A stretch of DNA of 44,167 bases, taken from positions 310,001 through 354,167 of the forward strand of contig RSEE01000075.1 of the NCBI GenBank assembly GCA_003971905.1. The letters run 5' to 3'. Shown here one piece after another: positions 7,317 through 40,170 of the stretch. The translations under genes and the position numbers were made by a program. The notes under the pieces are model-generated. The model was not told where the DNA came from. It worked only from the letters and a program-made list of their open reading frames with translations, and made no database searches. This stretch comes from Moniliella sp. 'wahieum' (lineage: Eukaryota). Each line of letters opens with the position of its first letter. Position 1 is the first letter of the stretch.

Positions 7317-8176
7317 GGCGGCGCTGAACGTGTTGATGGGCAAAGAACAAAAGAGCACGAGGGAGGATATGTCCCTGCATATACTGTTTTAATGGGCCAC
7401 ACACACAGATTGAGGAGTGCTTACTGCAGTGCCACGCCGCACAGACACCTGTCTGCTCCTGCAAAGCGCACGAGAGGAATATGCCCGCAGCAGAGGGGGG
7501 GGCAGAAGCGCTACGGCACAGGGCGTGGGGACACAGTGTCGAAACGGGCAAATGTGTGGGTGGCGGTAAGGCCTAAGGGATCCATCAATCAGGCACATGA
7601 AAACGGCCGATATGACGCGGACGCGAAGGGGCACACCTGACTCACGTCAACGTCAACGTTCAACGGTTGACTCTTTCCTTGTTGACTTGACGAGGGGAGG
7701 GCACGAGCGGTATTGCATCCGTCGCATGAATATGAGGTCAGTCGGAGCACACAGTGTGGCATGTGGCGCCCTGCTGGATGGACCAGACACTGTGAATCGG
7801 GTGGGGTTACGTGGTACGGCAGTTACTAGTTAGTGCTAGTTGCGCATTACGACCCGAGGCCGAAGCGCTAAGCGATGCAACGCCGTCAAGCTTCAAGGCG
7901 ACGAAGTGTCTGTGCGTTGTGGCCACCTCTCCAGCTGTCCAGTTCTTGGCAGGGGGATACGGCACATGTGACGCCCTTGGGGACGGGGGCGGTGCGCTGG
8001 GCAATGCTGCGTCACATCTCAGATCTCACATAGCAGCGCATCCGCTGCGACAGACCAGCATATCGTTTGGGGGTTATGCAGGGCTACTCGTTTACGCGCG
8101 GCACCCTCCCACACCAGCTACGTCCTGCTACCCTCTGCCTGGCACTTGACGATTGAAGCTGAAGCTCGAGAGAGCG

Positions 8177-8812
8177 AACGTGCCCTCCACACTGGCCTGC
8201 GGAAGCGGGCGACACGGGAGCGCGAGGGGGGCTGCAAGTGCGAGTGCGAGAGCACTGTGGCCTATGTACTGTACTGATCGATGATCGTCGATCAATGTAC
8301 ACTGTAGCCGGGGATGCAGCTTGCGGCCCCAGCGCCGAAGAGGGGGGGGCACACTGAGGAGATTGATGATGAAGTCGGCCGATGATCTCGCCGGTGTCGA
8401 TGATGCATGATGCAATGCAGACGGATGGATGTTCTACTTCGGACGTTGGCCATTCGACCGCTTACTTGTCGTACATAGTCACGATACTCAGGAACACTCT
8501 GCTGGCCACCCCCGTGCCTGCAAAGTCGAGCGGAGCATGCAAGACGCCCTTCTTGCAGCCGTACCATCCACGACCGGACGAGGGAAACTGAACACTGAAC
8601 AACGGGACTGTACCGCCACATGCGACACACGTGTGGAGTACTGAGTACTGAGTACGTTGGGTGACTATAGCGCTATAGCGAAGTTAGTTCTCCAGGCACG
8701 GCGTCTGTTGCGGCCTGAAGTGTCAAGCATGTCATGCATCATGCATCAAGCATGTCCAACCCAAGCTTCGTAAAACGGAAAAGCGAGACTACGTGGTTGG
8801 TATGCGCACGTG
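8177..8812. promoter_or_regulatory. E-box/Pho4-type sites upstream of the transporter: AACGTG (=CACGTT) 8177-8182, CACGTG 8628-8633, CACGTG 8807-8812
   Basis: Hexamers read directly 0.9-1.5 kb upstream of the transporter start; such short motifs can occur by chance. Confidence 0.3.
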
Positions 8813-9238
8813 CCCTTATATGAATGTTGGCGTTGAACTTCAACGTCTTCAACGTTACTGGACGTTGAGTGTTGGTGCACTGAGTTTTGGTGATTACTTG
8901 TCCTCGGGTATCAAATCAGCTTGATCGATGATCTATGGATAGGGCGAAATGCAGAACCGAATAGGATTCACTGCTACGATTCACTAGCCCATTCGCTCAC
9001 AAGCTCAGGTGCCAAAAACAGAGTGGGAAGAGTGTTGACTAGTGACTTCAGCAGTCAACCTGCGGTCGTCGGCGGTCACGGTCGGACGGACGGAACACTA
9101 CTGAGTATCGAATCCGATCCATCTGACAGGTCGGTGCATTGGTGCCCCGGTGCATGATGAGGATATGCATGAGATTGAGAAAACAGCGAACGTAAGTGGT
9201 GCAGCGATAACGAATGAGTGTCTCCTCTCCATCTGCCG

Positions 9239-11491
9239 CTAACTCGCTTCCTGCTTGAGTTCAACTGCCATTGTTGGGCTGGAAGCTCGGGGGCGAAGGC
9301 GAATCACCTGATGCCGGCAAAAACGCCGTGGTGGGCAGGGCCAGCGGAATCGTCTGCTCCGGTCGAGGCTTGGCCAACATTTCTGCCGAGGGGGTATACA
9401 GCGCCTCGATGCGCGCGCGGTTGGGGGCCAGAATACTCGTCCGAGTTGCAGGGATAGCCAAAGAGGCGGGGATGGGGTTGGTGGACCAGAGAGGTGAGGA
9501 ACCGTCTTTGGCTTTTGATCCCCCAGTTCCTGCGCACTAGTAAGCACCGAGAGCAACGCACGCAGCGCCTCGTTTTCCTCCCGTGCCGCCACCAACGCCG
9601 TTTCGCGTCGGGCCAAACGCGCTTGGATGCGGTACAGGTATTCGTTCCCGTGCCGCAGCACGGCGGCCTTGGAGATGCCCCGGTTGACCATCCAGGCTTG
9701 GGAGGGGGGAACGAGGTGGTCGGGATGAAAGTCTTCTGCCTCCTCATCTTCGGGCAGACCATCAGGCGCAAGAAAACTCCCCTCCTCCGCTTGCTCGTCC
9801 AGCACGATTGCCGGCAAGTTTTTCGCAGTTGGTCAAAGGAGTCTTTGAGGCTGTCCCGTCGTCTCTGCTCGGCAAGTTTGTGTGAAGAGCGGCGAGAATC
9901 GCACGGGGCAGCCAACGCAGCTTGTTTCTTCATGGCTTGCGCCGCAGACGCAGAATGGTAATACGTGATCCGATTGGCTTCCGTCCCTTTCCCGTCTTGG
10001 CTTTCCCGCGGCTGGTACCTTGAGGAAGAGAGGGCTGTGAGCGACGCCTCATCGTTTCGCGGCCAGAGATGGAAGAGAGAGGAGCGGGCGGTACCTGACC
10101 TCTCTCGTACCACGCTCGCCAGTCGTTGAGTGGGTACCAAGGCCCCTTCCTCTAGTGGTCCAGGCCGAGCCTCGTTGGAGTCCAATCCATTCTCTGTTGC
10201 CTTAGTGTCATGGGCTGGCTGTAGACCCATTAATGAGGCAGGTGTCACAGGGCTTTGCGTGCACGGCGAGGTGGATGTAGTAGGACCCAGGGGGTGCCTG
10301 TCCAGCGGGGCTGGAGGAGAGGAGAGGGCTTGGGTGGGTTGGCGAGAAGAGGGTGGGGTGAAGGTGACCTGCGGGGCAGCCTGACAGAGAGCTGCGGAAG
10401 GAGGAGAGCATATGACCCAATCTTCCAACGGATGGGAGACGGACTTGTCCCCACGTCTCAGCAGCCGGAAGCCAGCTCAGATCGTCAGTTCCAGAAGGAG
10501 CAGGGGGCAGTACGGTGGCCCCTTCCTCCCCGTCTCTGGTCCGCTTGGCTGCCTCCTTGTCCTTTCCCTCTTGCTGCCCGTACGAGGGTAGAGGAGTCAG
10601 AACGGACCCACATGGTGGTTCGGGCGGTACAGGAGAGCATGTGGAAGTGGATGGGAAGCAGGGAGCAGCCCCCCGCCACCCACGAAGGATTCAGCTGCTA
10701 CTGCTGGGGTTGAAGGCGTCGACAAGGACGACGAACCGAATTGGTAAAGGGCAGCGACAGGAGAGCTACCGGTTGCCCTTCCGCGGCGAACATGGGGTGA
10801 CAGGAACAGGTCATCACGTCGCGGTCGGGATTGGCTTCGCTCTTTCCCTTGCGGGTAGGTCAGAGGAGAAGCACTGCCGCGAAGAAGAGACGCGAGTGCT
10901 TACGGCCCGGCGACTCCCGCCGCGAGATGGACCAAGGCTAGAAGGGTATGCAGTAGATGGGGATCGGTGTGACTCTTCGTTCGCGGCACGAGAGCAGCCC
11001 ATCGGCTTGGTAGACTGCTTGGCACATCCAAGGCAGCAGCATTGCTGTGTCAGTGTCGGCATCCATGGTTGGTCCTGTGCCTGCGGCCAAGGGGTAGGGT
11101 GGCGCAGAGGATGAGGGAACCGAGTCAGAATAGCTAAACAAGCCAAGAGTGGGGCTAGAACGGGGTGCCAGGGCCCATGGCGAGTGGGGCGCACTCGCAC
11201 TTCCTATTGCTGGGCGAGGGTGGATTTCAGGGGCAACGGTGGGGGTGGCGGGGCCGTGGGGGGCATCAGGTCCATCTGTTGCAGTGTTTGGTCCAAGGGC
11301 GGGAAATAGGATTGGAGGTGGCCATGTTGTGGGAGGGACGGAGGCTGTGGCGCGGATGGTGATTGCTCGGCTTGTGGAATGCTCGCCATCGTCAGCGATG
11401 AGAGCATCTGCAGGCCTTGGGCTTGGTCGGCCACATTGGAAGAGGCCAAAAGAGAGATGACAAAGGGAGGCAAAGACGGCAGTGGCTCCAT
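9239..11491 (-). CDS. bHLH transcription factor, basidiomycete Pho4-like
   Basis: Basic region/helix 1 RRSSHKLAEQRRRDSLKDSFDQLRK, long acidic loop, helix 2 NRGISKAAVLRHGNEYLYRIQARLARRE followed by a coiled coil. The long P/S/Q-rich N-terminus starts at MEPLPSLPP (11491) and is split by indels; both ends approximate. Confidence 0.8.
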
Positions 11492-12551
11492 CTTTTTTTC
11501 GGATGACAAAACTGGGTGAGGAACTGAAGATGTTGGGACCAAAATGGTTGACGAAGAATAGAGTGTAGGCGAGATGCTTTCTGTTGTTGGTGCAGTGAGG
11601 TGCAGGGGTGCCCCACACGGGAGTAAGAGAGGAGGCCGGTGGCAGGCCCCACGGGCAACAAATGTGGAGGGGGGCGCAGAAGAGGGTCAGGAAGCACGAA
11701 GCGGGCAGATGAGAGCTGTATGGTCGGGGATGCAGGAGGGCATATCCGAATAGGATAGCGGACTTGGTGTTAGAGTACACATGGTGTGGGCCTGGACAGT
11801 CGATTTGTACATACAACACACCTGCCCCAGTACCCAGTATTCAGGAGTGACTACCAGACACTTGCCTGGGGCCTGGCCAGCGAAGACAGCCTGGGTGCCC
11901 ATGCTCACTGACACGGTCGCTGTGCCGTTCAGGGCACCAGCACCAACTCAGGCATGGCAGGGCATGGCTGGCATTGGCTCGCAGCGCGCAGCGCTGCATT
12001 GCATGGGGGCAAGGACGGATGCAGGCGAGCAGCTGCGGGCAACACTTCGTCACGCGTCACGCGTCAGTACTCAGGCGCGGGTGTGCCCTTCTGCGCCAGT
12101 GCGCCACCCGGTGGCTTGCGCCGGTGCAAGTCATGCATCACACACCGTGGGTGGGGGATGTGTGGCAGCCAGCCAGCGCGTGACGCGTGAGCGTGACCCT
12201 GCGTGCGGCGAGCGGCGGCTGGCCAATGTGGGCACGTGGCGGCGGCGGGGGGGCAACCAGAGTGTGCCTGCCGCCTGGGCCGCCCAGCGCACCGTCCACC
12301 ACAAGCATCCCAGCCTGGCAGCGCGTGCTGCCGATTCAATCGATATTCAAGTTCATGCAACATTGCAATTGCCATAGCATTTGAAAGTTAAATATCAGCA
12401 TGAAATTCTGGCAATGTGCGTCCGTCTGCTCTCGACGAGCGCCCTCGGCAACGGGCAGCACGTGACCGCCTCGCGCTCTCCTCTGGTCGAATGCTGGCTG
12501 GCCATCGTCCACGCATCTCTCCGCTCGCCGCTCGCCTCCCTCCCCCCCCCC

Positions 12552-13996: not shown

Positions 13997-14026
13997 CCCC
14001 ATCCCCATCCCCATCCCCATCCCATC
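13997..14026 (+). repeat. (CCCCAT)n hexamer microsatellite
   Basis: ccccatccccatccccatccccatcccatc just upstream of the TBC gene. Confidence 0.8.
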
Positions 14027-14055
14027 GCCACCCTCGCGATCCCCCCTTTCTCTTG

Positions 14056-16870
14056 ATGAGTTCGCGCACCCCCATGTCCCCCTCCCCACCCACTCTCAGT
14101 ACCGCCACTGGGCCTCCAGCGCCCCCTCCCGCTGCGGCGGCTGACGCCAACGCGAACGAATTCCCGGACGATCTGATTTTCCCTTCGGCGACGGCGACTC
14201 ATCTCACAGGGCTTGGGACCTGGCATGGCCCCTCTCTCGCTGACTTGCACGCTGCCGGTGCGGATGTGGCGGGTGGAATGGGCACATGGGGTCTAGCCCG
14301 GCTCCGCACTGCGTTGACAGGAACAGGGATGGACACGTTGGCCGACTTGGTTGCGCCGGGCTGGCTGCCTCCTGCGACCACCGATGGGGCCGAGGCGGCG
14401 CGGACGGGCGCGGACGAGGTGGCGGAGTGGGCGGCCCAAGCGCGATCCAGTGTGCTGAGCGACTTTGCGTCGATCACTGCTGTGGCACGCGACGGCGTGC
14501 ATGCCGCGCTCACCCACCCGGTTGCCGCCGCCTTGGGTGCCTCCTCGGTCGTTCCCGCCCCCATTGCCACCTGGGCCCACGTCGATGCGTCGGGTCGAGC
14601 AATGATCGTACCCCCTTCCCATCCGTCGCAAGAAGAACAGGCCTCGATGGCCTACGACCCGCAACGCATCGCCTTGGCCCAGTGGGCCTCTCGCCTCGCT
14701 GCGGCTGCGGACCAAGCGCGACAAGACACGGATACGCCCCAAGTTCGTCGCAGCTCGGCCGCCAGCTCAGGTTGGCGGTTGCCTTGGGACCGCGCGGCGC
14801 GCCCCGTCCCCATTGCTCTTTCCGAATGGAAGGCTTGGATGAACGATGCGGGGCAGTTGGACGCAACCAATCCCCACGCTGGCGCCGCCATCTGTACCTG
14901 TTCCCCCGTCCTCCTTGTCCTCTGACCCCGCTATTGCAGTGGGTCAGGCTGTAGGGCGCAAATTTTCTCGCGCGGCGTGGCCAGCGACGCGCGCCATGTT
15001 ATCTGGCCTTTCCTGTTGGGCGTGTACCCGTGGGATAGCACCTTGGCCCACCGCCAGTTGCTTCTCACGCAGCTTCAGACCGAGTACACTGACTGGTCCG
15101 CCCGCGCCGAGGCCCTGCTGCGCTACCAAAAGCATAAGGCCTCTTCCTCCGACCCCGACCCCGGTTCCGATCCCGTTCCCGATCCCGATCCTGACCCCGA
15201 TTCACACCCTCCACCTCAGGCTGCCCCCGCCCCCCCCGATCCGTCGGGGGAGATTACTTACCCTACTCTTCGTCCTCTTCGTGCTGTTCTTTGGAGTCAA
15301 GATACTGATCTCGACGTGGATGTTCGCGAGGAACGGCGGCGGATCCGGCTCGACTCGGAACGCACTGATCGAGAACACATCCTTTTCCGCGTGCCCACCA
15401 CTCCGCTTCGCTCGGTGCCCGACCACGCGGCAACGGCAGTGGAGCAGGGGAGGAGGATGCTGTGGAAGATGGCCCTCCTCCCACTAACATCCACATTGCC
15501 GCCCTCAACTCCATCCTCCTCGCCCTCGTCTTCTGGGACACTCGCGCTACCGCGCTTGCAGAGCAGAAGCCTCAGGACCCCGTTGTCTCCGCCTCTACTC
15601 CACCTCTTCTTCGGCCTCTGCCTCCGTCTCCACCTCGACCGACGTGCCCGCCAAGTTGGGCGGCTATGCACAGGGCATTTCCGACATCTGCCGTCCTTTA
15701 CGGCTCTTTTCCCTTTGGACAGATCGGCGTGGGAATGGGAATGGGAATGGGAATGGGAATGGGAATGGGAGCGAGAACGAGGAAGTGCCACCGCGTTCGC
15801 TGGTCGAAGCACTACGTTTGGCTGCTTGCGCGCGCTCTTGACTTGCTTTGGATGGAGCGCGCCGTTCCGCCGGGACCAAAAGGCCATGACGGCCGCACTG
15901 GCTTCGTTGCGCGGCATGTTGCGCACCTGCGCCCCCGACACGTATCGCCACTACTCGTCTCGAGGCGGACAACTTGTTCTTTGCTTATCGGTACGTTTCC
16001 CACTCCCAGTATGAATCCGAATCCCAATCCGAATCCGAATCCCAATCCCAATCCCAATCCGAGCCGTCGTCCCTACGCCCGCCCGGCCGAATCCGAACGT
16101 ACTAACCTCTTCCCTTCCCTTTTCTTATCTTTTCTTATCTTATTTTCTTATTTTCTCTTTTGTCTCTGACTTCTGGCTTGGCTCGTTGTTCCCTCGCGCG
16201 TGCAGCTGGCTGCTGGTCACCTTCAAGCGCGAGTTGGAGTTGGAAGATACGTGCCGGGTGTGGGAGGCGATCTGGGCCGCAGATAGCGAGCTGGCCGGTC
16301 TGTCGCGCTCGGTCGTGCCAACCGAGAGGCAGAGACCGATGCCACGGCAACGGCCAAGGCCAACGCGGATGCTGATCGGCACCGGGCCGCGTTGCAGCAA
16401 GGACCAGGTACGCCAGCCAGCTTCAGCTTGGTCTTGGCCTTTGCGTTGATCGTACGCGAAACGTTAGCCTGGCTCAGCTCCAAGTGTTTGACGAGGCATT
16501 GCATTACTTTAACTCGCTTGCTCCGCCGGCCGGCACGGCAGCGGCCAATCATCCTTCTGCCTCTGCCTCTGCCTCTGCTCCTGCCTCGGACTTGGCGTCG
16601 GGGTCCGGGCCGGAATCCGGTACCGAACCAACCGTACACTGCCGTCGGGGACGACTTGCTCTTTCGTGCGGCACGGGCTGCTCGCGACCTCCCAGGACTC
16701 TGGCCGCCCCCGCCTGTCAGCTTTCCAACGCGGCCGTGAGGCGCGGGTACGGGCCGTGGCGCGGAGGAGGGCTGCGCTGGAGGCACTGTATTGCTGAAAT
16801 GATATATCAGAATGCCGAGGGCGCGGACGAGGATGAAGAGGATGAGCTTGAAGAGAACGACTGCACCTAG
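14056..16870 (+). CDS. GYP7: TBC-domain Rab GTPase-activating protein, Gyp7-like
   Basis: RHVIWPFLLGVYPWDS; IRLDSERTDR (IxxDxxR arginine finger); GGYAQGISD (YxQ glutamine finger); FRRDQKAM; LFFAYR | intron 15991-16205 | WLLVTFKRELELEDTCRVWEAIWA; FDEALHYFNSL. Low-complexity inserts; ends approximate. Confidence 0.85.
15731..15770 (+). repeat. (GGGAAT)6 microsatellite inside a TBC exon
   Basis: gggaatgggaatgggaatgggaatgggaatgggaatggga; encodes a dipeptide repeat, probably GN in the YAQG frame. Confidence 0.85.
16014..16061 (+). repeat. (AATCCS)n microsatellite in the TBC intron
   Basis: aatccgaatcccaatccgaatccgaatcccaatcccaatcccaatccg. Confidence 0.85.
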
Positions 16871-19468: not shown

Positions 19469-20226
19469 GGTGCGAACGTTTCCCTGGAGAAGCGGGGGGC
19501 CGGGGTGGGGTGTGGCAGGAAGGCGTGCACAGTGTGTGGTAGCAACCAGCCAACTTGCCCCGCCGCGCCTGGTTTCGTCTTGCTCGCAATTTGCAAACCA
19601 ACCAATCAAAAAAAAAGTGGGGGGCGGAACAAAAATTGCAGGGTCTGGACACCTTTGTTCCGCTCGGCGCTTACCTTCACGCGCTTTCCCAGTGGCCAGC
19701 CGCTCAGCTGCATCAGGACACAGTGCCCTGGAAGCACTGGGGGGCTCTCCATCGTCATTGTCGTAGGGGCTGCGTCGTCACGCGTCACGCGTCAGATCTC
19801 ATCACCCTGTTTCTGCAACTTCACACCATGTACTCTGCTTGCTTCGTATATCGCCCTGTGTCAGATTTGGAGGGGGATGGCCACGAGATATTGACATCAT
19901 GATGGCGACGCCCTCTTAAATGGGTTACGAAGAAAGAAAGCTGCATTAGCGAGTCATGTGGGCAAGTGCTGTTTTCCGTCTTCGTCATTCTCAAGTTCTT
20001 TTGTGGACATGATATATGGAGACAGGGATATTCACTCAATAAAAAGATAAATGGACTCGCATTCGCATTCGCATTCACAAGTCCACAGTTCAGACCAGCT
20101 GAAGCAAAAATAGATTGGAGGGTGACTTGCACTGTCCCAAGAAAATAAGGCAGAAAAAAGATAAAATAGGCAGAAGGAAAATGATGCTGGCGCAGCCAGC
20201 GTCCCTAGAGAGAGGGGAAGAAAGCA

Positions 20227-21515: not shown

Positions 21516-24173
21516 GGCGACAGCTGGGGGGAGTTGGGGCGGGGGGGAGAGTAAAGACGGTAGGGCAAAAGAGACAGAGAAAGAACGTAAAGGCCAGCTT
21601 CCGTCTTGGAGTGGTGGATAGGAGGGGGAGGGGGGCGGGAAGGCGAGAGGAGGTGGAGGAGAGGTGGTGGGGGTGTTGGATTGGGGAGAGGGGCTGGTAC
21701 TCAAGAGAGCCGCTAGCTGCTAACCATTTTGTTACTACTTCAATGGAGTGACTATAGGCAACGCACACACGCCGGGACTCGTGTGCTTTCATCAGCCATT
21801 AGTTGGACTATGCCGGACTGCCCCTCTGCCCTAGGGCGATCGGCGATGGTGGATGATGACTGCTTGCCGCTGGTGAAGATCTGGTATCGGGTGCGATGCG
21901 CCTCGCAGGCTGAACTTGGCGGCGGAGCGCTTGCAGGAGCGCTTGCAGACAACCCCATGGGATTCCGCATGTGTGCGCTCCACACATCATGGCTGTCGGG
22001 GGGGCTGGGAAACAGGTGGGCGCAGAGCCAGTGCGCGGGCATCGGCTTATCATGTGCTGGGCGTGTGGAGACTTAGGGGTGCTCACTGCCCCGTGCAGAG
22101 GGGAATTGCCCCACACTGTGCTGTGGCGCGTTACCTCCTGTGCGTTACTTCTTTGTGCGCCCTTTTGGTTGTCATGCATCATGCATCATGCAGTCTCCAT
22201 GTCACATGTCATGAGCACCCACATCTACCGGCATCACCAGTATGCTCTTATCCACTTCCTCCGCACGGATGATCATGACATCAGGGCTTCACAGATCTAT
22301 AGTAGGACTAGAGAACCACAAGGCCTATACGGCCCCCAGACTGGGCGGACCTTATATCGATGCTTTGTTTACCGTGCGTTGTGTGTATTGAAGGTCTGAG
22401 CCTTCGCTTCCCCCGTGTTGGTGGAGACAACCCACGGCCATTTTTCTCCCCTGAGGCACACCGTTCCATACTATGCCCCTTACCCCCCTGGTACCCCGTT
22501 CCATAGACCTCTCTCTTCGGTCTCGTCCACGCTGTTCATCGTTCACGCCAACAGAGACCTCCTCTCCAGCATGCAACATAGGTTAACATTCCATTATATT
22601 CAGGGTGGCGTAGCACGCCGTTCCGTTGTCAGGAGCAGGAAAGCGCGGAAGACCACTGGAGAGCAGGATGTTGATATTAGTGTATCGCATTGCACATGTG
22701 TTACACAGAAGCTAGATAATATTCCTACGCGCCAGGAAGGAACATTGCAATGAATGAATCCGAAGGTTCCGGGCTTGGGCTACCACTACACTAGTGTGGC
22801 GTCATAGAAAGCGTTGTGGCAGCCAGTAGCAAGAAAGCGTACCAGGCTGAAGCAGGAACACGCGACTGGTATGGCCCCACAGACAAGCAGGTAACCGAGA
22901 AAAGCGGTGCGCCTCAAAGCACATTTGTCGTTGTTGATCTGCCATGCGATGAAGATCGAGGCCCGGGTTGTCGACGGATGGCAGGCCCCTGATTCTCGGC
23001 TGCTGCTCCGTCTGGGAGCCCCGCCTAGTGCTTACTGTTCCATCTGGGATGCCCGCCTAGTGCTTCTTCTTGGCCAGGAGGGGACAACTTATAGTCACAC
23101 CGTTGCATCGTCGTCGTCGCGACCGCAAGCACCGTCTATGGCCCACAGCGCTGATCGATAACCGTGTCTGCCTTAGCAACCGTTCCTTCGGCCATCGTTC
23201 CATTACCCAATCGTGATCGTGAACCGCAGCCACCATTCCATCGTCCATGCGTCCTGATGAGCCACCGTAGGCACTGCCCCGCGTCGTTTCAGCCGTAGCC
23301 ACCGTTCCACTGTCCACCTTGATCCTTCACCGCACGATCCGTCGCCACCCGTCCACCGTGGGGAGTTGCGACCACAGCCCCTAAGCGGAGGGGGCTGCTC
23401 ATGTGGCAAGGCTACCACGTACGCACCGGCTTGGGTCGTAGTAACGTATCTGAAGCCTCTGGGGCTTAGGGACGGGTGGAGAGGTAGTGGAGGACAAACA
23501 CTGCCAGAGCTCGGGCTGAAGAGGGGCAGCTGATGACGTGGCTGTGGAAAGGAACCTGCGCGATAAGCTGGTACGGTACGGGGACTCGACGCGGCTGATT
23601 AAGGAAGGCTCGCGCGACTGGGTAATGCAGAAGCTGTGGGAGACAAGGATGGAAAAGACGAGAGGAGGCAACTAAATGAAGACAAGGTTGACTGTACCGA
23701 ACCAATTGGCTGGAATCGGGCAGGAGTTGAACAGAAAGGCGGGAAGGGACGCGAATGGAAGATGGTGAAAGGTCCTCCTGACCCGGTACAGAAGTTAGAT
23801 CCGAAAAGGGAAAAGTGTTGGAGTGTGGTGGCATGTGGCACCACTTGGTGTGATGGCTGGATCGGCCATGTCGCTGGCAAGCGGAACTGGCTATAGAGTT
23901 GCGCGACTCGCGCGCTCCGGATTGGTTACCGTCGCGCCCTCGTTCCCCTCCTTCCTCTTCTCCTGTTGCATTGAAGGTTGGACTAGCGTCAGGAGCTTAC
24001 AAGAAGCTATCTCTGACTGTTCCCACCTGCACAGTGCAATCGTCCTTAGCTTGGTAGCGTAGCTACTTCTCAGTTAACGGACAACCGCGGTTCTGGGCTC
24101 TCACTGCAGTGGTGTGACCGATTCATCGCGCTCACCCATTGATCGCCCGGTCTAGTGCTTCACCCTAGCCCCA

Positions 24174-27200: not shown

Positions 27201-27700
27201 CGGAGCCCAGCCGGGGGCTGCGGCGCCGGGGGCGAGTGGGGGTTGGGAGGAGGGGCGTGCCTTGACCCGGTACTTCGGCACCGGGTTCCTGCTTCGGAGT
27301 TGCGGGGGCAGCGGGCCCTGTTGTGGCCAGGGTTCGTGCAAAGGGAGCAATGATACTCGCGCTTGGGGGTGGGTCGGTGGCGGGGGGGCGGGGGGGTGGT
27401 GGGTACGGGGACGGGGTGGTGGGATGGGGTGGGGTGGCGGCGGGCGGGGCGGCGTGTCACGTGCCAGGACCCCAGGTGGCAGCAAGCCGGCGCCGGTCAC
27501 GTGGTCAGGCATCTGCTCAGGTTGAGTGAATGTCTCATCGACCGCACTTGGTGCTCTGGGGCCAAAGGGCGGGTGTGGGGGACGGGGCGGGAGCGGGGGG
27601 CGGGGCTCCCGGGGAGGGGGCGTCTCGGGCGCCAGGACCTCCTCGGGGGGATCCGCCATACGGGTGCGCAACACCATGGGCGGTGCCGGGGTGGTGGTCC
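24206..27700 (-). mobile_element. Non-LTR retrotransposon with restriction-like endonuclease (CRE/Cnl1/MoTeR-like), single ORF 27677-24307 broken by indels
   Basis: Pro-rich N-terminus with CCHC knuckle CSLCTNPGHNRARC; RT motifs GAGLSGW, GGIRPIACG, GVRQGDPL, VMAYLDDI, SGLKLNLRKC, LPLRLGGCG; C-terminal CKCG..HIMSC, NEP, RTD, KNAKY, FFPLVLTTRG (RLE). No APE domain. About 100-nt 3' UTR ends at the A5 of repeat B. Confidence 0.92.
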
Positions 27701-27896
27701 TTTACGTAAAATTACACAAGCATGCCACCTGGCACGTTTCACCCGGCGCGTTCCAGGCGGGCGCAGCCAGGCGGATGCGCATCTACAAATTCATAACGCA
27801 GACCCCCTTTTTACTTTACGTAAAATTACACAAGCATGCCACCTGGCACGTTTCACCCGGCGCGTTCCAGGCGGGCGCAGCCAGGCGGATGCGCAT
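27700..27896 (+). repeat. 83-bp direct repeat A (27700-27782 and 27814-27896) separated by repeat B copy 2; period 114 bp
   Basis: CTTTACGTAAAATTACACAAGCATGCC...CCAGGCGGATGCGCAT occurs twice, identical. Confidence 0.92.
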
Positions 27897-28074: not shown

Positions 28075-28335
28075 TCTTTCAAATGGGGGTGTAGAAAGGG
28101 AGATATGACAAAAGGGGTTGGCTGCCGCAGGCGCAACGGAGAAAGATAAAGTAAGAGGTGACGCGGGGACAGTCGTCGCAAAGATGCCGGAAACTTGGTG
28201 GTGTCATTTAGGCCAACCGACTTCGACTTAAGCGGGGGGCGACTCTTGAAGCTTGACACGCGGATGCGTGGCCGCTCGGGCCACCGTACATCGTTTAACG
28301 TTTAACTGACCACCTCGGAGCAACGTACTCAGTCT

Positions 28336-31300: not shown

Positions 31301-31540
31301 GTGCCTGTGCGGTGATCACTTGCTCACACGGAGCATACCCCGACAAGATCTGCTCCCAACAAGCGCGAAAGCGGGCTTCGGAGGGCCCATGCCGGGTGCA
31401 GATCCCGGCTTGCCTTTTGCAGTTGGTGTGCAAATTCAACGCCAATTCCATCTCCCCAGTGAAATAGAAATGAGGAGACCATCCAGCAAAGCATGGTTCC
31501 CGTGTTGGCGCCTCTTGCGAAACAAGGGGGCGGGATGCTC
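28336..31540 (+). mobile_element. Degenerate Ty3/gypsy (chromovirus-like) element, copy 1: gag with duplicated CCHC module, integrase remnant, no PR/RT/RH
   Basis: Gag-like LHELQQGK.PVDEYARKF...KSLDELVEWAVRAES; EEY.RRRGFNLCMRCG.SGHWRD.CP twice; integrase CQ...HRPCGLMRPL...PWSSFSMDHF...PDGQS; GPY/F-like VGSFKV...RIHP; purine-rich tract near 31520-31535. Confidence 0.8.
29385..29973 (+). repeat. Tandem ~297-bp duplication carrying the gag zinc knuckle
   Basis: 29385-29676 and 29683-29973 both run TCGAGTGGGCGG...CCTGTCCTCTGCG, diverged by substitutions. Confidence 0.85.
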
Positions 31541-31713
31541 GATGCCTGCCCGTTTCCGGGATCTGCCATGGACACTGAGGCTCAGATCTGAGGCTCCGAC
31601 CTGAGGGACTCTACTGACGCTGATGCATGATGCGCTGATGGCGCTGATGCGTCAGTGATTCTACGCCCGCCCCGCATTTTTCTCACCGATGCCTCTAATC
31701 AGCGCAATCAGCC

Positions 31714-32990
31714 TTTTGAACATTGTTAAGCGCCGGTAATCGACGTCCAGCCCTCTTCAATTCATTCCGGCTTTTTTTCGGAGGAAGCTAGGAAGGTCAA
31801 TCATCTCGACCATCGAACGGTCGTCGAGCAAGTCATCCACGTCGAGCACCATGGAGGGCGCTGCTTCTGCCGATGAACTTGTCCAGGCTGTGGTGCGTGC
31901 CGTCCTGCCGCGCATGTGTGAATGGGGCTGACGGGAAGGTGCCTTTGCCCCCCCCCCCCCCAGAACGACTTGGAGCAGCATGTCCGTTCGGCCCTGCGTG
32001 AGTTGGACCCGGGCTCACCGTTGTCCCAAGTGATGCCTGCTGTCGCCGCGCGCGTGGTGACCTCGTCTCTGGTCAAGAACGGCCTGCTTCCGGTGCCGGC
32101 GGCGATGGATGTTCAGCTCGGGGTCTGCAGTGGGGCGTGGGACCCATCCACTGTCCGAGCCTACCCGCTCTTGGCTCTCGGCCGTTTCCAACCACAGGGC
32201 GATCTGGCCAAAGCGCATCTCGCCCTCTGTGGCCACATGTTCCCTGCACCCCCGACGTGCGATGGAGAGGAACGAAATACCAGGCTTCGTCCTCTTCTGG
32301 TGCTGCACCCGTCCAAGACGCTATTTCCCATGGTGTCCACTCCATTCTTCAGTTGCTGCGTCCGGCTGACTCAGACTTGCACACAGCGGTCTTAGTGCCT
32401 AAACTCCCTGACCCTTCCTCGTCGTCCATTCCCCGGGATGGCTCGACAACTGCAGTACAATCCCCCCCCCTCAATAATGATCTTACCCCCATCCAACTAT
32501 GCCGCCCTGCCCCTCGGTTCAAACGCAGCACGCTCAACTTGATGATGAGAGAAGGGACAAGCAACATCTCTCTGCATGTGGACCAGGGTTAGATTCTCGC
32601 AGTAAGATGCAAGGCAAACGTCCTTCTGAAGGCAAGGCGCGAGAGGGAGCTTCAAAGCGCATGATGCTACCTAAGAAACAGCACGACGTAGTGCCTTCCC
32701 CACTGCCTTCGAACCGTGCCGCAGGTATATTGGAAGGTAAGGTGCTCCTCAAGATTCTCCAGAGTCGTCGTGAGGAAACTTCGCGGGTGATACGCCTACT
32801 TGGCACGCTGGACCGACTTTCCTAGCAGTGAAGACGAGTGGGTACCCGCCGCTGCGTTTCTTCACCTCGTGCCTGCTGTTCTCGACTTTCACAGCAGTCA
32901 TCCAGAAGCCCCATGTTCCAATCGTCGCCGTCTATTAATACGCGTTGCCTCCTCCAAGGGCAAAGGAAGAGGGGATAAGGTCACGGGTGG
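31714..32990 (+). mobile_element. Degenerate Ty3/gypsy copy 2: gag 5' region joined to chromodomain and polypurine tract
   Basis: 31714-32490 repeats 28336-29105 (near-identical in 31970-32390); then chromodomain-like ARWTDFPSSEDEWVPAAAFLHLVPAVLDFHSSHPEAP, PPT AAAGGAAGAGGGGATAA, then GTCACGGG (degenerate TGTCAC LTR start). Confidence 0.8.
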
Positions 32991-33714
32991 ACCGTAACTC
33001 CATCTATCTTTATTTTTGGCCTTGCCTGCATTGTTCGCGCGTCCCTTCACATCTCAGCTTCAAGCAAAATTCAGCCCTGTCTCATCTGCGTGTTGGCCAC
33101 GGCCACCTACCCCCCCCACATATGGTGCTCTCTCTATCATGGAAACGCACGCTGCCACATGCCTGTGAAGACGAAACAACTTGGACGAAACTACTGCCAT
33201 CGCGATGCGCTTTGCTTCTCGAGCGACGAGGTCACCGTGAGAGGGGTTACACTGGATAAACATGTTGAGCGCCGAATGGGCTCAAGAATGGGCCCAACAA
33301 TGGCCTGGGGCGGGGCTCATAGAAGGGTGCGCGCGTAGGCGCAGGGGTAGCGTCCAAGACGAAGAGGGTCCTGTGTTCGGGGGGGCCCAGACGTAGAAGC
33401 AGATGCAAGATCAGCTCAGCAACTCGTGGGTGGCCGTTGAGAGTTGAGTCTCAACTCTGAGAAGATGGGGATTTGGGCGTGGTCGATCCCCTGGATCATC
33501 GATCATTAAGATCATTAAGATCATTGCTTAGCGCTTATTGATCACACGTCACGAAACACCTCTAACCCTATACCTGCGTTTTACAATCTGAAATCAAGTC
33601 ACTCCCGGCGGACTCCAAGAACGCCGGTCTCAGATCTCCGATCCCTCAGCCGGCGGTGGACCAAGGCGCCTCGGAAGAACAGCGCCAGTCCTCCTTCGCC
33701 TTCTTCCCACCACC

Positions 33715-34710
33715 ATGGGCTACGACTTCATCTCGGGCGAGGCCGGTGCAGAAGCCTTGCTGAGCAGGTACGACACATTCTTATTCGACTGTGATGGCGT
33801 GCTATGGTCCGGCTCAGACCAGTTGGCTGGCGCTGCGGATGCCCTGGCCAAGTTGCGCAAGGCTGGCAAGCAGGTCGTTTTTGTGACCAACAACGCGTCC
33901 GTCTCACGCGCCAAGTACATCCACAAGTTCGAAAAAATGGGAATTGAGGCCAAGGTCGAGGAGATTGTGTCGTCTGCTTATGCAGCAGCGGTGTACGTGG
34001 CGCGGGTGCTGAAATTGGGCGAGTCAGCACGGCCGAAGGTCTATGTCCTGGGCATGGCAGGCATCGAGGACGAGCTGGCGATCGAGGCATTCCCTTTTGC
34101 GGCGGAACTGATCCTAAACAAGGCTTTTCTCTGCCTGAAGAGGGTGATACCTGGGCACCGCTTAATCACCCAGATGCCATTGACTCCGAGGTCGGGGCCG
34201 TACTGTGCGGAATCGACTTGAATCTGAATTACATCAAACTGGCCAAAGCGTACAAACACATCATGCGCGAGGGAACCCATTTTATCTTGACCAACGATGA
34301 CTCTACCTTTCCTGCTCCAGGCGGACCATGGCCTGGCGCAGGTGCCATGTCGTCCCCGCTGCTCTTCTCAACCAAGAGACGCCCACGATCATTGGAAAGC
34401 CCCACCAGCCTATCCTCGATTCGATCCAAGCAGTGTGCGTTGTTGTTCCTTTCTTATACATCGTCGAGCAGACGTCTCTTCCGAGCACATGAACTAACTT
34501 TCTGTGCGAACCAGGCATCCGTTCAATCCAAAACGCACCCTCTTTATTGGCGACCGCCTCGACACGGATATCGCCTTTGGCGGCCACGCTGGCATCGACA
34601 CCCTCATGGTTCTCACAGGCATTTCCAGCAAAGCCGAGGTGGACGCACCAGGGGCAGAGGTAGTGCCGACGTACATGGCCGACTCGCTCGCATCGGCGCT
34701 CCACGTGTAG
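33715..34710 (+). CDS. PHO13: HAD-IIA phosphatase (4-nitrophenylphosphatase / phosphoglycolate phosphatase)
   Basis: YDTFLFDCDGVLWSG (DxD motif I); VFVTNNA; NYIKLAKAY; FILTNDDSTFP...PGAGA; IIGKP; intron 34435-34514; FIGDRLDTDIAFG...TLMVLTG; TAG at 34710. Confidence 0.92.
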
Positions 34711-35646
34711 TGCCGGTCCAAGTTATGTGTGGGCTCCGCCCCGCTTACGCCTGCCCTTTAATCGATGCAAGATACTTCGTGCATGGATCCATGGGGTGGG
34801 AGGGGAAAAGACGAAGCAGGTGTGTGGGCAAACCTTAAGTTGCCTATTTACGTATGCGGGGGAACGTCGATCCCGAACCGATCCTGATCCTGTGGGGGTG
34901 GGTGGCCTTGGGCTCATGCAAACGGGGGGATGAGGAGTCTGAGCGGCGGCAGCGGATGCGTCCTTTTGTTGTGAAAGCACTGCCATCTGCTGCCGCACCT
35001 CCTGGGTCGTGCCCTAGCAAGTTGTATAAACGGTCTGCGTCTTCGGGTTGCTTCCCGTCGAGTTGTAGGAACGGTCGAGCTTGGCCCTTGCGCAGCCGCT
35101 TTGCAGCCGTGCCACTGTAACCACCCCAGGCCAGACCGCGGGTGGACCATAAGGAAGAAGCTATCGCTTCTGTTCCCGATCTTCGGCGTCCATTGTCCTG
35201 GCAGCACCCCGCTCTTGGTTTGCACCGTGCGTCCTGGCCATAGTATTCGGGTTGGCGTCCTGTATACTATCCAGGCGGAGCCGCACAAGGGCGGGTCATG
35301 GAGAGTGAGGCCGGCATCCCCGAAGCTCCATGCACCCATTAAACTATTGACTAAATCTACAACACCTGCGAGCTCCAGGTATCGCCACTGGTGCAGATGA
35401 CCGAGCAATAGGAAGCAAGAACACAAGGAGAGAGAAAAACAGCCTGCGAATACATTCGTGTAGAGAGCATGCGAGCAGAACAGAACATGAACAAGCAAGA
35501 GCAGCAAGACGGGAAGAGACTGGGGGTAGCATGCAGTCGTACGTGCGGGACTGGGAAATGCTTTTGGACATTGAAGCTGGCCCACTGCCCCCATACATAG
35601 ATCGACTACAATAGACAGGGTGGGCAGCTGCCGCACAATGGCCATG

Positions 35647-37292
35647 CTAGCGTCCAAAGATGGGCACGAACGAGCCACGCGGACCGGGGACGACAGGCAA
35701 GAGTTCGTAGCGGAACGCGGCCAGCTGGTTGAAAAAGTGCGATCGGAAGAAAGGCGCGCAAACTAGGTATTAGGAATGCCAAGAGGTTAGTACCAGCTCG
35801 TTGCGAACAAGGTGCAAAGCAAGGTCCGGCAAGGCCAACGTACACAGAGGCGCAACCAATACTAGGAAGCTGTGGAGCATCAGAAGGCCAGCCAGTGAGG
35901 AATCTTGGCGTTGATGTGGGGGTAAGAGCGCTTGAACCAAGCTGCCACCACGCTATCCAACAAAGTCAATACACCAATTCCCCTCCACCTCTCGTTCCAC
36001 AACCTGATCCACAAGGAGTAAGGTACGTACGCTGCTGCCCCGTTGACAACGAAGAAGGAGAAATTCTCTAGCGTCGCGGTCCCAAAGGTAAAGTAAGTGA
36101 TGTGTTCGTGAAAGATGCCCGAGACAGTAAACGCCCGCTGCCAACGCCTTCTTGTTAAAACTCTTGTTACTGCTGCTAGGCACATGAGGCTTTTCGGGAG
36201 CGGGCGACGACGTAGGCGACGCCGTGGGCGTCATTCGAAGTGCACTCATCTTTGCCGCCCCATTCCCATTCAACGAGGTTTAGACGCATCGTCAGGCTCC
36301 GTATCGGTCGTCAAGCTGGTGCGGGCCGCCTTGCTCGAATACTTCTTAGGGGCCCCGGCAGCTCCAGCAAAGATGACGCGGTGAAGAATGACAGTAATGG
36401 CCTTGTTCCAGGTGGACCAGAAGCGTTGGATCGAAGTGGCTGAGACAGGTGATTCAAACATAGGCGCCATCTCCACATTCAACAGGAAACCAAGCGCGTT
36501 CAACATCCCATCGCCAAAGAAAGCCAAAACAAAGAGAATGTCAAAGCCAAGGAGGTACGAGTACAGGTGGAACGCCCAGCGCGGCATGGCTTCAACATCG
36601 GCTTGGGTGGGCACAAAGTAGAGCAGGGCAAAAAACAATGCAGAACTGGACAAAGACCAGTGGAAAGACCTGGAGGCACTGCCAGCGAGCATTCCGCGTA
36701 AATCCTTCGGCCTGCCTCCGCTCCTCCAACTCGGACTCTTCCACCGGGAATGCCCAGAGATGCGCCAAAAGGCGTGGAAAGGACCATGAATACACCTCAT
36801 CCCACCTGGCGCAGAGCAAAGATGTCCCAGGCCAGCAGGGCGGAGCGGAAACCAAGCGCAGGCATCCAAAAATCAAGCATCATCACCCCCGACTGTCCCG
36901 CCAAAGCAGGCCAGAAGAAGAGGGTGATCATTAGGGGGGTAGCGAGAACGATGCGAAGAGTACGTGATTGGTTGGCTTGCGGGCTATTGGCCGCGACACG
37001 GGGCACCAGGAGATGGTAGGCAAAGTAGGCGTACAGGCCCGTGCAGAGAATGAAGGACAGGATATGATATAGGACGCCACCAGCGCGTTCGAGTGGATAG
37101 GGGGCATGTCATATAGGATGGCGGGCTCGGAGGAGAGCCGACTCCAAAAGGTGAGGAAGGGTCCTTGGCCCAGGGCATGCCCAGCGTAGCGCCCAAGCGG
37201 GTGGGGGCGAGGTAGTGCGTTGCCAGTCCTTCCCCCCGGGATTGAGCGGCAGCGATGAGGCCGCTCGAGTAGGAGGCAATGCGGCCGGCCAT
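35647..37292 (-). CDS. Membrane-bound O-acyltransferase, wax synthase-like (MBOAT_2)
   Basis: Multi-pass hydrophobic protein; PMFESPVSATSIQRFWSTWNKAITVILHRVIF; AFTVSGIFHEH (catalytic His); intron 35843-35763 (GTACGT...TACTAAC...TAG) joins VAPL|FCAPFF; TAG at 35647. Confidence 0.87.
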
Positions 37293-38705
37293 GGCGGTAG
37301 CGATGGCAATAAGAGGATGCAGAGAAGGCGGTGGGGGGAGGGGGTGGGGGTGGAAGAGAGGGATGGAGTTAGAGAGGTCGCGCCAAGAAATAGAGAATGC
37401 CGGCCCTGCTCTTGGTTGCAGCTGCTCAGGCCTCAGGCTGAGGAAGCAAGGGCGGGGCAGTGCGGTGGGGTGGCGTCCCCCACCGTGTGGTGCCAGCAGC
37501 AGGCGGCACCAATAATCGATCAGTATCGATTATCGCGCATTGCATCGCCACGTCACTGAGTTTCAGCCTGTTTTCAGCGGCTTCGCCCAGCGGCCCCGCA
37601 GAGCTCCGCGGCGTCAGGTTGCGCTCAATGCGCTCAACCTCAACGTCCAGACGTAACGACAAGGACAACGCTTTTACGCTGAACGTCCGCATCCCACCAG
37701 TGCCTCAGCCGCTCAGCCGCGCAGCGCTCAGCGTTGGAAGCGTTCGGGGAGATGCGTGACGCGGACGCGTGACACGTGACATGTGTGGCCGCAGCGGACC
37801 GCAGGGGACGTGTGTTGAGACGCTTTCACTCGTGGCGTGTTGCATGTTTTTACGCGTTGCGCTTTCCGCGTCATTTGCGTCACCGATCCCCTGACCGCGT
37901 GACCGTGTGACCGGCTACTGGGCGGCAAGGAAGGGTTGATGCGTTGATATTTGATCAAGATTGGGTACTGGTCTGAAAGACCTGAATATTGAATAGAGCC
38001 AGCTTGAATCTCCTGAAAGGTGGAGTTTTTCCCGTGCAAGAACGCTGCCATACGTAGACGTGTAGTACATATAGACGCGTACCCCACAGACATACATAGC
38101 CGGCATAACCCGTAACGCGTAACGCGTAACCGCGTAACCGGTAACCTAGCGACCAAGAACACGGACCGTACCCATCCTGTACACGGAGGCCGAAGCCAAC
38201 AAAACACCATGACATACCGTCCTGTCTGCCTTCCGGCTTCCCAGACCGGAGACCGGTGACCGGTGACCCGTCGGCGACCGATGCCGGTTGCGGCTCTTTC
38301 CGACTTACCCCGCCTTGCTCCGGGAAGCCACAATGACGTGAGCATCACGCGTCACACTGTCAGTCCGGTGAGCCACTAGTCACTGGTCATGCACATGGTG
38401 GTGATGCCGGTGATGCACTGGTGGTGCATGTGGCGGGGAGATCCTAGAGATCCCGGGCTGTCCGCTCGCGGGGTGCAAGCTATGTTCAAACAGAGAACAT
38501 AATTATGCCACGGGCGAACCCACTATGGCGCGCCTCCTCCGGCTTCCAGCTTCAAGCGTCAAATGGACCTTCAGCATCCCCTTGTCGGGGCGGCCAGGAA
38601 AGGCAAAGCGGCAAGCGACAACGGCAAGACAAACGACAAGCTGCAAGATTGCATGGAGCGATCCGCCTGTTGCTTTGTGTGCCCCGCCACTGTCCTCGCC
38701 ACTGC

Positions 38706-38756
38706 CCGCCACCGCCACTGCCCCGCCACCGCCACTGCCCCGCCACCGCCACTGCC
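38706..38756 (+). repeat. 17-bp minisatellite (CCGCCACCGCCACTGCC)x3
   Basis: Three exact units plus degenerate units upstream. Confidence 0.8.
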
Positions 38757-40046
38757 CTGCCCATTTGCACTTCTGAGACACTCAAACTCAAACTGCGAAG
38801 CTTTCACTTTTCACTTTTGGGGGACGGTGCCTGCTGTGGCAGGCTGTGGCCGCCCGCAGGGGAAGGGACGCGAGATATTGAAGGCGTCAGATAGAATAGT
38901 CACTAGTCACTAGTCACTAGTCTGTACTCAGTCTAAGTACTTAGTGGCTCATGGACACAGGCACAACACGCTATAATAGCTTCCGTTCAACATGTGATTC
39001 TGTAGCCGAACGCCACCCACCGCCACCCCACCGTCTCCTCTTCTCCCCCCCCCACATGTCCCACTCGCGCTCGGCGCTCATGCACTCAGTGAGTACTCAG
39101 TACTCAGTACTCAGTCTGAGTACTCACTATTCATGTCACATGTCACAGTACTCATCAGATAGCAGCCGTACTCTTCAAATCGCCCTCGCTTATGCTTTGG
39201 CCCAGGATCTTGGTCTTTCCATCTCCGTGCCCATCAGTGCATCCGCAGACGTGCATGTCCGCCTGGCCGACGTTCGCAGTCGTGACCGGGTGGCCCTGGT
39301 GGCCCAGACACATGGATGTGGTGCATGATGCATGATGAGATCGATGAGAGGGCGATGTACCCTGGTGGCGAAAACGATACCGAGAACGGTACATACCCAT
39401 GTGTGTGTGTTGTGGTCCAGGTATACCAGGCAGAGCCATGCGATGTTTCAACGTGCTACCTCGGTGCCGTTGACCGGTGAGTTCACCGCTCTCCTGAGCC
39501 GAGAGCGCGTGAGCACACGTTTTCTCTCCTCCGTTCCTGTGTGGGGTAGAGAGACTAGAGAGGCTAAGCGCTAAGCTTAGCGCTAATATATAAGGCCCTC
39601 GCAACGATATGTAGATGCGATATTGCATGCGGCCAGTTCTCGGCGGAGGAACTGTCTGCATCGTCTTGATCCACAATCCTTTTCACTTCTCCTTCTCGCA
39701 TCTCCGCACCTCAGACCTCAGGCTGAGGCCTCATCCACTGCCCATAATCTTCCTCGTGGCAGTCCTTCCTGGGCAGTCCTTGGTCCGACTCAGCCAGGCT
39801 TCAGGGCCTCAGGCCCTTTTCAGGCCGGCCTCCATGGATCAGGCCATCGGTGCATTACGCCCTCAGAAGGGTTCATCCAGTCGCTTTCATTTTTTACCTT
39901 CATGGATACATACCTCGTTACGTGTCATGCGCACGCTTGAGGCCGGCCGAGGCTTCGGGCTGGTTTCGGAACCACATATGCAAGAATGATTACTGACCTT
40001 ACGTTTACCTCCGCTCATCAACACAACTCGAGACAATGTGCCGGGG

Positions 40047-40170
40047 TCACCGGTCAATATTCAACGTATTCAACGTACATTCAACGATGATCGATGAAGC
40101 TTGAAGCTTGAAGCTAGCTTGAAGCTTGAAGTTCAAGCTTAGCTGCTTCAAGCTTCAGCTTAATGCATCA
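40047..40170. repeat. Densest TNA+palindrome heptamer chain (cores CCGG, ATAT, ACGT, TCGA, AGCT, TGCA)
   Basis: TCA CCGG TCA ATAT TCA ACGT ... TGA TCGA TGA AGCT TGA AGCT TGA AGCT ... TCA AGCT TCA ... TAA TGCA TCA. Confidence 0.85.

Follow-up and report, generated by a model that had tools for sequence, protein, structure and literature searches.

TNA-centred palindromic heptamers in a Moniliella genome window as probable scars of transposon excision

In a stretch of 44,167 nucleotides from Moniliella sp. 'wahieum' (assembly GCA_003971905.1, contig RSEE01000075.1, positions 310,001 to 354,167 of the forward strand; hereafter the window, numbered from its first letter), we have analyzed short repeats in which a TNA triplet recurs after seven nucleotides, on the other side of a four-nucleotide palindromic core that contains an inverted copy of the adjacent flank. 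All counts, statistics and element scans given below concern this single 44-kb window. These heptamers are probably excision scars of a cut-and-paste element which duplicates seven base pairs of target (NNTNANN) and leaves on the flanking DNA blunt hairpins comparable to those of RAG and Transib, opened about two nucleotides off centre, and the arrays would then have grown by revisits of the same site or by slippage. The agent would be a single cut-and-paste DNA transposon or a few such elements; it is from the sequence classes and their statistics that we infer this element, the hairpins and the host nuclease opening them.

Palindromic cores copied from the flank

The basic structure is a 12-mer of the form TNAxy+rc(xy)+TNAxy, where rc denotes the reverse complement, with 35 occurrences on the plus strand of the window. 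Its mirror form, abTNA+rc(ab)+abTNA, occurs 33 times and is the reverse complement of the first, i.e., the first form on the minus strand, so that a single asymmetric structure is present on both strands. The resulting 68 perfect 12-mers compare with about 0.17 in 200 second-order Markov shuffles, in which TNA-type 12-mers had a mean of 0.07 per strand and a maximum of 3. TNA is the only one of the 16 possible outer triplets to be enriched, the 15 others giving a total of only 21 such patterns on the plus strand and 20 on the minus strand. All the sites cited in a preliminary description of this DNA were found as written, each representing a gain of seven nucleotides (+7): TGACTAGTGACT at 9036, TGATCGATGATC at 8922, TCAGGCCTCAGG at 37426, TGAATATTGAAT at 37983 and TTAACGTTTAAC at 28295 for the first form, and TCTCAGATCTCA at 8017, AGTTACTAGTTA at 7821 and GGTCACCGGTCA at 40045 for the mirror form. 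The scars extend from 927 to 40374, beyond the span first proposed.

When the central tetramer is left free, 135 decamers TNA-N4-TNA are found, with a palindromic core in 70 of them against 8.4 expected. The two triplets share the same N in 58 of these 70 decamers (C or G in 48 of the 58), while N is complementary in 7 and otherwise different in 5; the complementary-N sites are perfect 10-bp palindromes and show flank concordance in three instances out of seven. Of the 16 possible palindromic tetramers, as many as 14 are found in the core position. The same signal is seen in tandem repeats, with 114 runs of period 7 that reach 12 nt or more, where shuffles give about 40, and an odd-palindrome unit in 49 of the 115 period-7 runs listed. 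Among periods 4 to 12, self-complementary units are enriched at period 7 (49 versus 4.4 expected), the next best being period 5 (18 versus 9.3), and periods other than 7 lack a comparable enrichment and stay near shuffle means. Moreover, the window contains 189 TNA-centred palindromic heptamers (112 +/- 10 expected), whereas those centred on ANT, CNG and GNC are at expectation, and even palindromes of 4-10 bp show no general enrichment in the window. Ordinary microsatellite slippage was rejected as the origin of the pattern since single-unit sites carry inverted flank nucleotides and the pattern is limited to TNA and to period 7; slippage may extend existing arrays.

The preliminary description had proposed that the identity of the core is templated by the flank. 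Tabulated on the 35 isolated same-N sites, flank concordance bears this out well above chance: the core is an inverted copy of the two end nucleotides of at least one flank in 29 of them (chance about 12%), being concordant with the right flank only in 13, with the left flank only in 8, with both in 8 and with neither in 6. In 14 of the 21 one-sided sites, both nucleotides of the non-matching flank are discordant, and in the other 7 a single one is, a split such as an unrelated dinucleotide would give. It follows that the target was no palindrome and that the palindrome is made by the event itself. Reconstructed empty sites share no consensus beyond T-N-A. The arrays with two cores at 40086 (GA-TGA-AG) and 38111 (CG-TAA-CC), to which the same description had drawn attention, are present as well and follow from one ancestral unit expanded from each flank.

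Regarding their location, same-N sites form 40 loci, of which one lies in Pfam-supported ORFs (open reading frames), although these cover 25.8% of the window (binomial P ~1e-4). The others fall in gaps between genes at 7.5-9.0, 12.0-12.2, 19.8, 22.2, 28.2-28.3, 31.6, 33.5 and 37.4-40.4 kb. Purging of 7-nt insertions from coding DNA, or a preference of the element for promoters, would produce such avoidance of ORFs. Windows of sequence violating one constraint of the pattern are also abundant, with 50 instances against about 5 by chance, beside the 68 perfect ones, and 15 of those on the plus strand are remote from any perfect window. The scars are therefore spread in age. It could be argued that palindromic heptamers residing in intergenic, promoter-like DNA are selected cis-regulatory sites, for instance sites of dimeric transcription factors, rather than mutational scars, and the occurrence of the same 19-nt array, containing ACGCGT, at both 12048 and 19776 would fit with this idea. 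We consider it very improbable, as a binding site would be a fixed sequence whereas here 14 of the 16 palindromic tetramers are used and the core follows the local flank, and as decayed copies are common.

A seven-base-pair unit and its possible origin

The size of the duplicated unit is best seen in sites that repeat more than five base pairs. Of 11 TNA-centred 7-mers repeated after a 2-nt spacer, 9 have a spacer that inverts the adjoining end of the repeat; with the remaining centre triplets the proportion is 5 of 39, close to chance, and the shuffles yield 0.017. These nine positions correspond to seven loci with a gain of nine nucleotides (+9): CTTCAAC+GT+CTTCAAC at 8838..8853, centred on TCA, the spacer being the reverse complement of the last two nucleotides of the left copy; GCTGATG+GC+GCTGATG at 31634; AATCAGC+GC+AATCAGC at 31697; a threefold array (GATCATT+AA)x2+GATCATT at 33501-33525; GGTGATG+CC+GGTGATG at 38400..38415, the spacer being the reverse complement of the first two nucleotides of the right copy; GATGAGA+TC+GATGAGA at 39334..39349; and ATTCAAC+GT+ATTCAAC at 40059..40074. 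In the +9 loci, the outer dinucleotides on the two sides of the repeat bear no relation to one another. Since full 7-mers are repeated with unrelated outer dinucleotides, the duplicated unit is 7 bp (pq-TNA-xy) and the two extra nucleotides resemble P nucleotides.

Smaller classes complete this spectrum, which comprises about 40 +7 loci, 7 +9 loci, 3 plain duplications and a few +8 and +11 loci. The single +8 locus, CGTAACC+G+CGTAACC at 38125..38139, contains one inverted nucleotide. The two +11 loci contain either four inverted nucleotides derived from the right copy (ACTCAGT+GAGT+ACTCAGT, 39084..39101) or two from each copy (CTTGAAG+CT+AG+CTTGAAG, 40107..40124). Finally, three loci are plain 7-bp tandem duplications with a TNA centre and non-palindromic flanks: AC-TGA-AC x2 at 8587..8601, CG-TGA-CA x2 at 37768..37781, where the run is exactly 14 nt long, which fixes the phase with TGA central, and TT-TCA-CT x2.4 at 38802..38818.

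In the preliminary description, the repeats had been read as a 5-bp duplication plus two P-like nucleotides. The two inverted nucleotides stand, and the 5-bp unit has to be replaced by one of 7 bp. In TNAxy-nn-TNAxy, the spacer is y'x' (primes denoting complements) in 68 of 80 cases, and the spacer N'A, which the other hairpin of a 5-bp duplication would give, is found in 8 cases, all of which coincide with y'x', so that it is never independent; furthermore, the +9 class repeats the full 7 bp. Copies of TNAxy separated by one inverted nucleotide (+6) are not enriched in the window (7 of 26 TNAxy-n-TNAxy versus 25% by chance). Several other geometries were confronted with the 21 one-sided sites. 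A 5-bp duplication with symmetric opening, a one-base offset with a 7-bp duplication and a blunt 8-bp model each reproduced none of the 21 and were discarded, as was a one-base offset with 8 bp, which accounted for 11 of the 21, only if the duplication was allowed to slide in position. A 3-bp TNA duplication of the PIF/Harbinger or CACTA type was rejected by reasoning, as flank hairpins would then yield TNA-TN'A and not a core copied from xy, and cores derived from transposon termini in the manner of Tc1/mariner were excluded since the cores follow the flank. A model with blunt hairpins on a 7-bp duplication reproduces the +9, +8 and +11 classes independently.

In the mechanism that we favour, insertion would proceed through 7-nt staggered cuts centred on TNA, converting pq-TNA-xy into pqTNAxy[element]pqTNAxy. 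Excision would leave both flanks as blunt, covalently closed hairpins, by analogy with RAG and Transib, and a host nuclease of the Artemis/Pso2 kind would nick each hairpin about two nucleotides past its tip to give the self-complementary 4-nt 3' overhangs xyy'x' and q'p'pq. Ligation of the top or of the bottom strand would produce either pq-TNA-xyy'x'-TNA-xy or pq-TNA-q'p'pq-TNA-xy, always with a gain of seven nucleotides. With one hairpin opened at its tip, the product would be +9, i.e., two full repeats separated by two inverted nucleotides, and with both opened at the tip, a plain 7-bp duplication, while retention of both overhangs would result in +11. Opening three nucleotides off the tip would give the same product as two, because T and A pair, and opening at least four nucleotides off the tip would lead to the complementary-N class. 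The new unit would itself be a TNA-centred palindromic heptamer with cohesive overhangs, from which later visits or slippage would build arrays of two to four units. Slippage may add to array growth, as can be compared with 38243, where a variant AGA unit is itself duplicated (AGA-CCGG-AGA-CCGG-TGA).

Among the two mechanisms initially envisaged, a transposon with a 7-bp TNA-centred duplication and hairpins on its flanks, and fold-back copying over a TNA triloop, the former gives the best fit, including for the +9, +8, +11 and plain +7 classes which had not been listed. The latter fails on the full 7-bp repeats separated by two inverted nucleotides. In its wider form, replication errors at TNA, by fold-back or strand-switch copying, would make the first inverted dinucleotide and repeat, and slippage would expand the heptamers. 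Arrays of two to four units could indeed arise by slippage, the duplicated variant unit at 38243 is in line with it, and the seven complementary-N sites are perfect 10-bp palindromes such as true fold-back copying yields. Nevertheless, fold-back continued beyond the dinucleotide should leave N complementary, whereas N is the same in 58 of the 70 palindromic-core decamers, and a 2-bp stem over a 3-nt loop is unstable. Neither the 7-bp repeats with unrelated outer dinucleotides and two inverted nucleotides (9 of 11 for TNA versus 5 of 39 for others) nor the restriction to TNA and to period 7 is accounted for, and we regard a replicative origin as distinctly unlikely.

A host nuclease acting without any mobile element, be it a domesticated transposase or a dimeric endonuclease, could also break intergenic TNA sites time and again with a 7-nt stagger, the duplications and inverted nucleotides resulting from end-joining with fill-in and occasional turn-around synthesis. 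Filling-in of 7-nt overhangs, with no, one or two palindromic additions, readily yields the plain +7, +9 and +11 products, and the lack of an element in 44 kb, the very high density of scars and the clustering of loci in promoter-like gaps agree with such an activity. We nonetheless judge it unlikely. In the dominant class (68 of 80), two inverted nucleotides are gained on one side and exactly two nucleotides are lost on the other, a result predicted by symmetric opening of two hairpins but not by independent fill-in and resection. Moreover, most complementary 7-nt overhangs should re-anneal scarless, and we know of no such nuclease, no search for one having been made. Both the nuclease without element and the replicative origin explain the dominant class less well than excision by a cut-and-paste element.

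Known elements and points against an excision origin

As described in PMC5499845, transposases of the hAT, Transib, RAG1 and MULE types leave hairpins on flanking DNA, which may be opened by enzymes of the host, Artemis for instance. In V(D)J recombination and Transib transposition, off-centre opening of a blunt flank hairpin adds an even palindrome which inverts the last nucleotides of the flank. The scars of the window, in which xy is followed by y'x', mostly over two nucleotides, are similar to these even P nucleotides. The target duplication of Transib and RAG is 5 bp, and in this they differ from the 7-bp TNA-centred unit found here. The apparent likeness to RAG/Transib thus concerns the chemistry and does not extend to the length of the duplication; the window was found to contain no RAG/Transib-like gene or element.

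hAT elements duplicate 8 bp with the consensus nTnnnnAn and not, as here, 7 bp of which the third is T and the fifth A. Like the present scars, the footprints of Ac/Ds in plants, yeast and Candida keep both copies of the duplication with small palindromic indels at the joint. In Candida, Ac/Ds excision generates P-nucleotide insertions with 28 footprint types among 128 events, a few types being dominant and accompanied by rarer ones, as in our spectrum; however, according to that source, hAT palindromes have at their centre the complement of the nucleotide adjoining the element, in contrast to the even palindromes with the last flank base retained observed here (PMC5873905). The hairpin precedent invoked by the preliminary description is hence apt for blunt hairpins of the RAG/Transib type, which give even palindromes, and not for Ac/Ds-type hAT elements. 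The array growth and the density of scars seen here are not reported for hAT footprints in the literature searched, and no hAT element, i.e., neither transposase nor terminal inverted repeats, was found in the window.

Basidiomycete elements with 7-bp duplications do exist, namely hAT7 in Pucciniales and Kyakuja in Laccaria bicolor, in the same phylum as the best-matching proteins of the window, and hAT7 groups with the Ac/Tam3-type hATs which form hairpins on their flanks, according to passages of the paper describing them (Kojima 2025, PMC12730594). The hAT chemistry would predict odd palindromes for hAT7, whereas those of the window are even, and no copy, terminus or transposase of hAT7 or Kyakuja was found in the window. 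With regard to Tc1/mariner elements, whose footprint consists of TA, 2-3 nucleotides of the transposon end per side, and TA, the likeness lies in a short, near-palindromic insertion of fixed length within a duplicated target, i.e., duplication plus a few nucleotides. They differ in that the transposon ends supply the inner nucleotides, which do not vary within a family, whereas here these are copies of the local flank with 14 of 16 tetramers represented.

Several observations weigh against excision by a cut-and-paste element. One of them is the density, as the 44 kb contain about 50 loci and a single stretch of 1.5 kb has 11 starts, which to our knowledge exceeds the density of any transposon footprints. 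The search for elements with inverted termini bounded by NNTNANN duplications, which had been suggested as a check, gave none in the 44-kb window: identical TNA-centred 7-mer pairs 20-12000 nt apart enclosed inverted termini in 0 of 1011 cases, and 5-9-bp duplications around terminal inverted repeats were chance-level hits only, none of them TNA-centred. Mobile remnants seen in the window are limited to a reverse-transcriptase fragment (24.3-26.2 kb) and to gag-like genes with zinc knuckles. The success of the blunt-hairpin 7-bp model on all 21 one-sided sites is by construction, the sites having been picked by that very pattern, and among its steps we infer the opening at +2, the position which Artemis prefers, and the single-strand ligation. 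With hAT7 and Kyakuja, the likeness in duplication concerns its length, a consensus sequence being given in neither the main text nor the supplement of PMC12730594.

The flanks provide further points of this kind. A core matching neither flank, as in 6 of the 35 isolated sites, is not predicted by the 7-bp hairpin model, nor are the outer flanks of the mixed arrays at 12064, 19792, 39584 and 40054, which match neither flank. The exceptions named in the preliminary description are real, since 19792 matches neither flank and the array at 8732, which lies between 9-nt direct repeats, has mismatching outer flanks. Conversely, the cores matching both flanks (8 of 35) exceed the 1-in-16 anticipated for random targets, and to account for this excess one has to assume further that palindromic sites are preferred or are better repaired. 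Cohesive overhangs at a palindromic unit could explain both this excess and array growth by revisits.

Scar loci, neighbouring genes and wider meaning

The first intergenic cluster of +7 scars (TNA, 4-bp palindromic core, TNA) covers 7567..9047, a region without Pfam-supported ORF, with starts at 7567, 7653, 7823, 7886, 8019, 8275, 8401, 8642, 8732, 8922 and 9036. Upstream of the EAP30/Vps22-like gene, arrays occupy 12048..12190, with CG-TCA-(CGCG-TCA)x2-GTAC-TCA followed by further sites at 12131 and 12181, and another array adjoins the Noc2 gene at 19776..19801 (TCA-CGCG-TCA-CGCG-TCA-GATC-TCA), its GATC core being an exception to the flank rule. A (TCATGCA)x3 array with an adjoining TCA-CATG-TCA scar is located at 22172..22211, and two scars at 28245..28306, CT-TGA-AGCT-TGA and, at 28295, GT-TTA-ACGT-TTA-AC. 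One +7 scar at 31621 accompanies the two +9 scars within 31621..31712, and +7 scars at 33496 and 33528 surround the threefold +9 array upstream of the HAD-hydrolase gene (33494..33537). The densest cluster, about 3 kb of intergenic DNA at 37425..40374, contains many +7 scars and arrays, the latter at 38897-38922 (TAGTCAC x3.7), 39092-39115, 40085-40131 and 40285-40305, and reaches 15-16 TNA-centred palindromic heptamers per kb in bins 38-40.

A few repeats related to these loci deserve mention in their own right. The identical 19-nt array CGTCACGCGTCACGCGTCA is found at 12048-12066 and 19776-19794, upstream of the EAP30/Vps22-like and Noc2 genes, and each copy contains ACGCGT twice, which we take to be the MluI cell-cycle-box motif; regulatory motifs may have been created by scars. 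Period-5 duplications whose units are 5-bp odd palindromes centred on TNA, such as TCAGC twice, occur at 203, 4417, 33411, 29358 and 37061 and might form a minor class in which the stagger is shorter, or be due to chance. At 8665-8680, the 8-bp tandem unit of (CTATAGCG)x2 consists of two even palindromes and lacks TNA; this run, one of two self-complementary period-8 runs (0.5 expected), is not explained by the 7-bp model. At 31575-31606, a perfect 12-bp palindrome, CTCAGATCTGAG, lies within a repeat with a 13-bp period and may be unrelated or may represent a scar whose inverted tract is long.

The window has a GC content of about 58%, and its ORFs, which are split by introns, encode eukaryotic domains: mitochondrial L17, S3, bHLH, EAP30/Vps22, Noc2, glycosyl hydrolase, HAD hydrolase and OPT transporter. 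For the Noc2 piece, the top named protein matches are basidiomycetes (30-34% identity), while the matches of the OPT transporter are scattered across Dikarya, which points to a fungus and probably to a basidiomycete. Two relatives in Logan show 68% protein identity, a metagenome scan with the Noc2 protein gave a single 3-kb locus (30% identity), too distant for alleles to be compared, and no public sequencing runs were listed as containing positions 31000-40990 of the window.

Other repeats and mobile remnants were encountered. A truncated ORF resembling those of non-LTR retrotransposons (LTR, long terminal repeat) lies at 24310-26204 on the minus strand, with a weak RVT_1 match at 25524-26204 (minus strand; E 2e-4, below the Pfam cut-off) and an adjoining 402-amino-acid ORF without Pfam hit, the tail of which is rich in cysteine and histidine and resembles the C-termini of LINE ORF2. 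A direct duplication of about 770 bp (28336-29101 and 31714-32488, spacing about 3.38 kb) shows 91% identity overall and 96-98% in its core, with a C-run 8 nt longer in one copy; its copies flank gag-like ORFs with CCHC zinc knuckles (29511-30023), and it could be either a gene duplicated in tandem or the two ends of a retroelement, similar to LTRs. The part shared between 28.3-29.1 and 31.7-32.5 kb contains no heptamer scars, and it therefore offers no pair of filled and empty sites. At 27700-27896, two 83-nt copies, 100% identical and spaced by 114 nt, stand beside a very G-rich proline-coding stretch and look like a recent local tandem duplication. Perfect hexamer repeats within ORFs (15730-16062 and 21200-21346; TGGGAA x6.8, GAATCC x8.3 and GTGATG-type) encode dipeptide runs such as WEWEWE and are ordinary in-frame microsatellites, unlike the TNA heptamers.

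While P-nucleotide footprints are classical, the association of a 7-bp TNA-centred duplication with even P nucleotides, the saturation and the growth into heptamer arrays look new. Our literature searches on fungi returned no account of TNA-centred heptamer arrays or of 7-nt palindromic insertions, and in the literature searched we found none of a 7-bp TNA duplication with even P nucleotides, of a scar-saturated region or of scars growing into heptamer arrays. It is possible, although we lean slightly against it, that an undescribed group of elements or a host-captured derivative combines a 7-bp NNTNANN duplication with blunt hairpins in the style of RAG/Transib, and that it has come to promoters so frequently that its revisit-extended scars are the main source of the non-coding short tandem repeats of this genome. 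If true, this would provide a direct and legible trace of the birth of microsatellites by transposition and of the preference of the host in hairpin opening. Sequences composed of NNTNANN, two inverted nucleotides and the repeat could moreover serve to spot past activity in other genomes, even after loss of the element. If the heptamers are excision scars, the type of element to which they point, with its 7-bp duplication, TNA centre and blunt hairpin, would fall outside the textbook definitions of hAT or Transib, and transposition would be a route to heptamer microsatellites and to new palindromic promoter motifs; this genome would then keep many natural "coding joints" whose spectrum shows, without experiment, how this fungus opens and joins hairpins.

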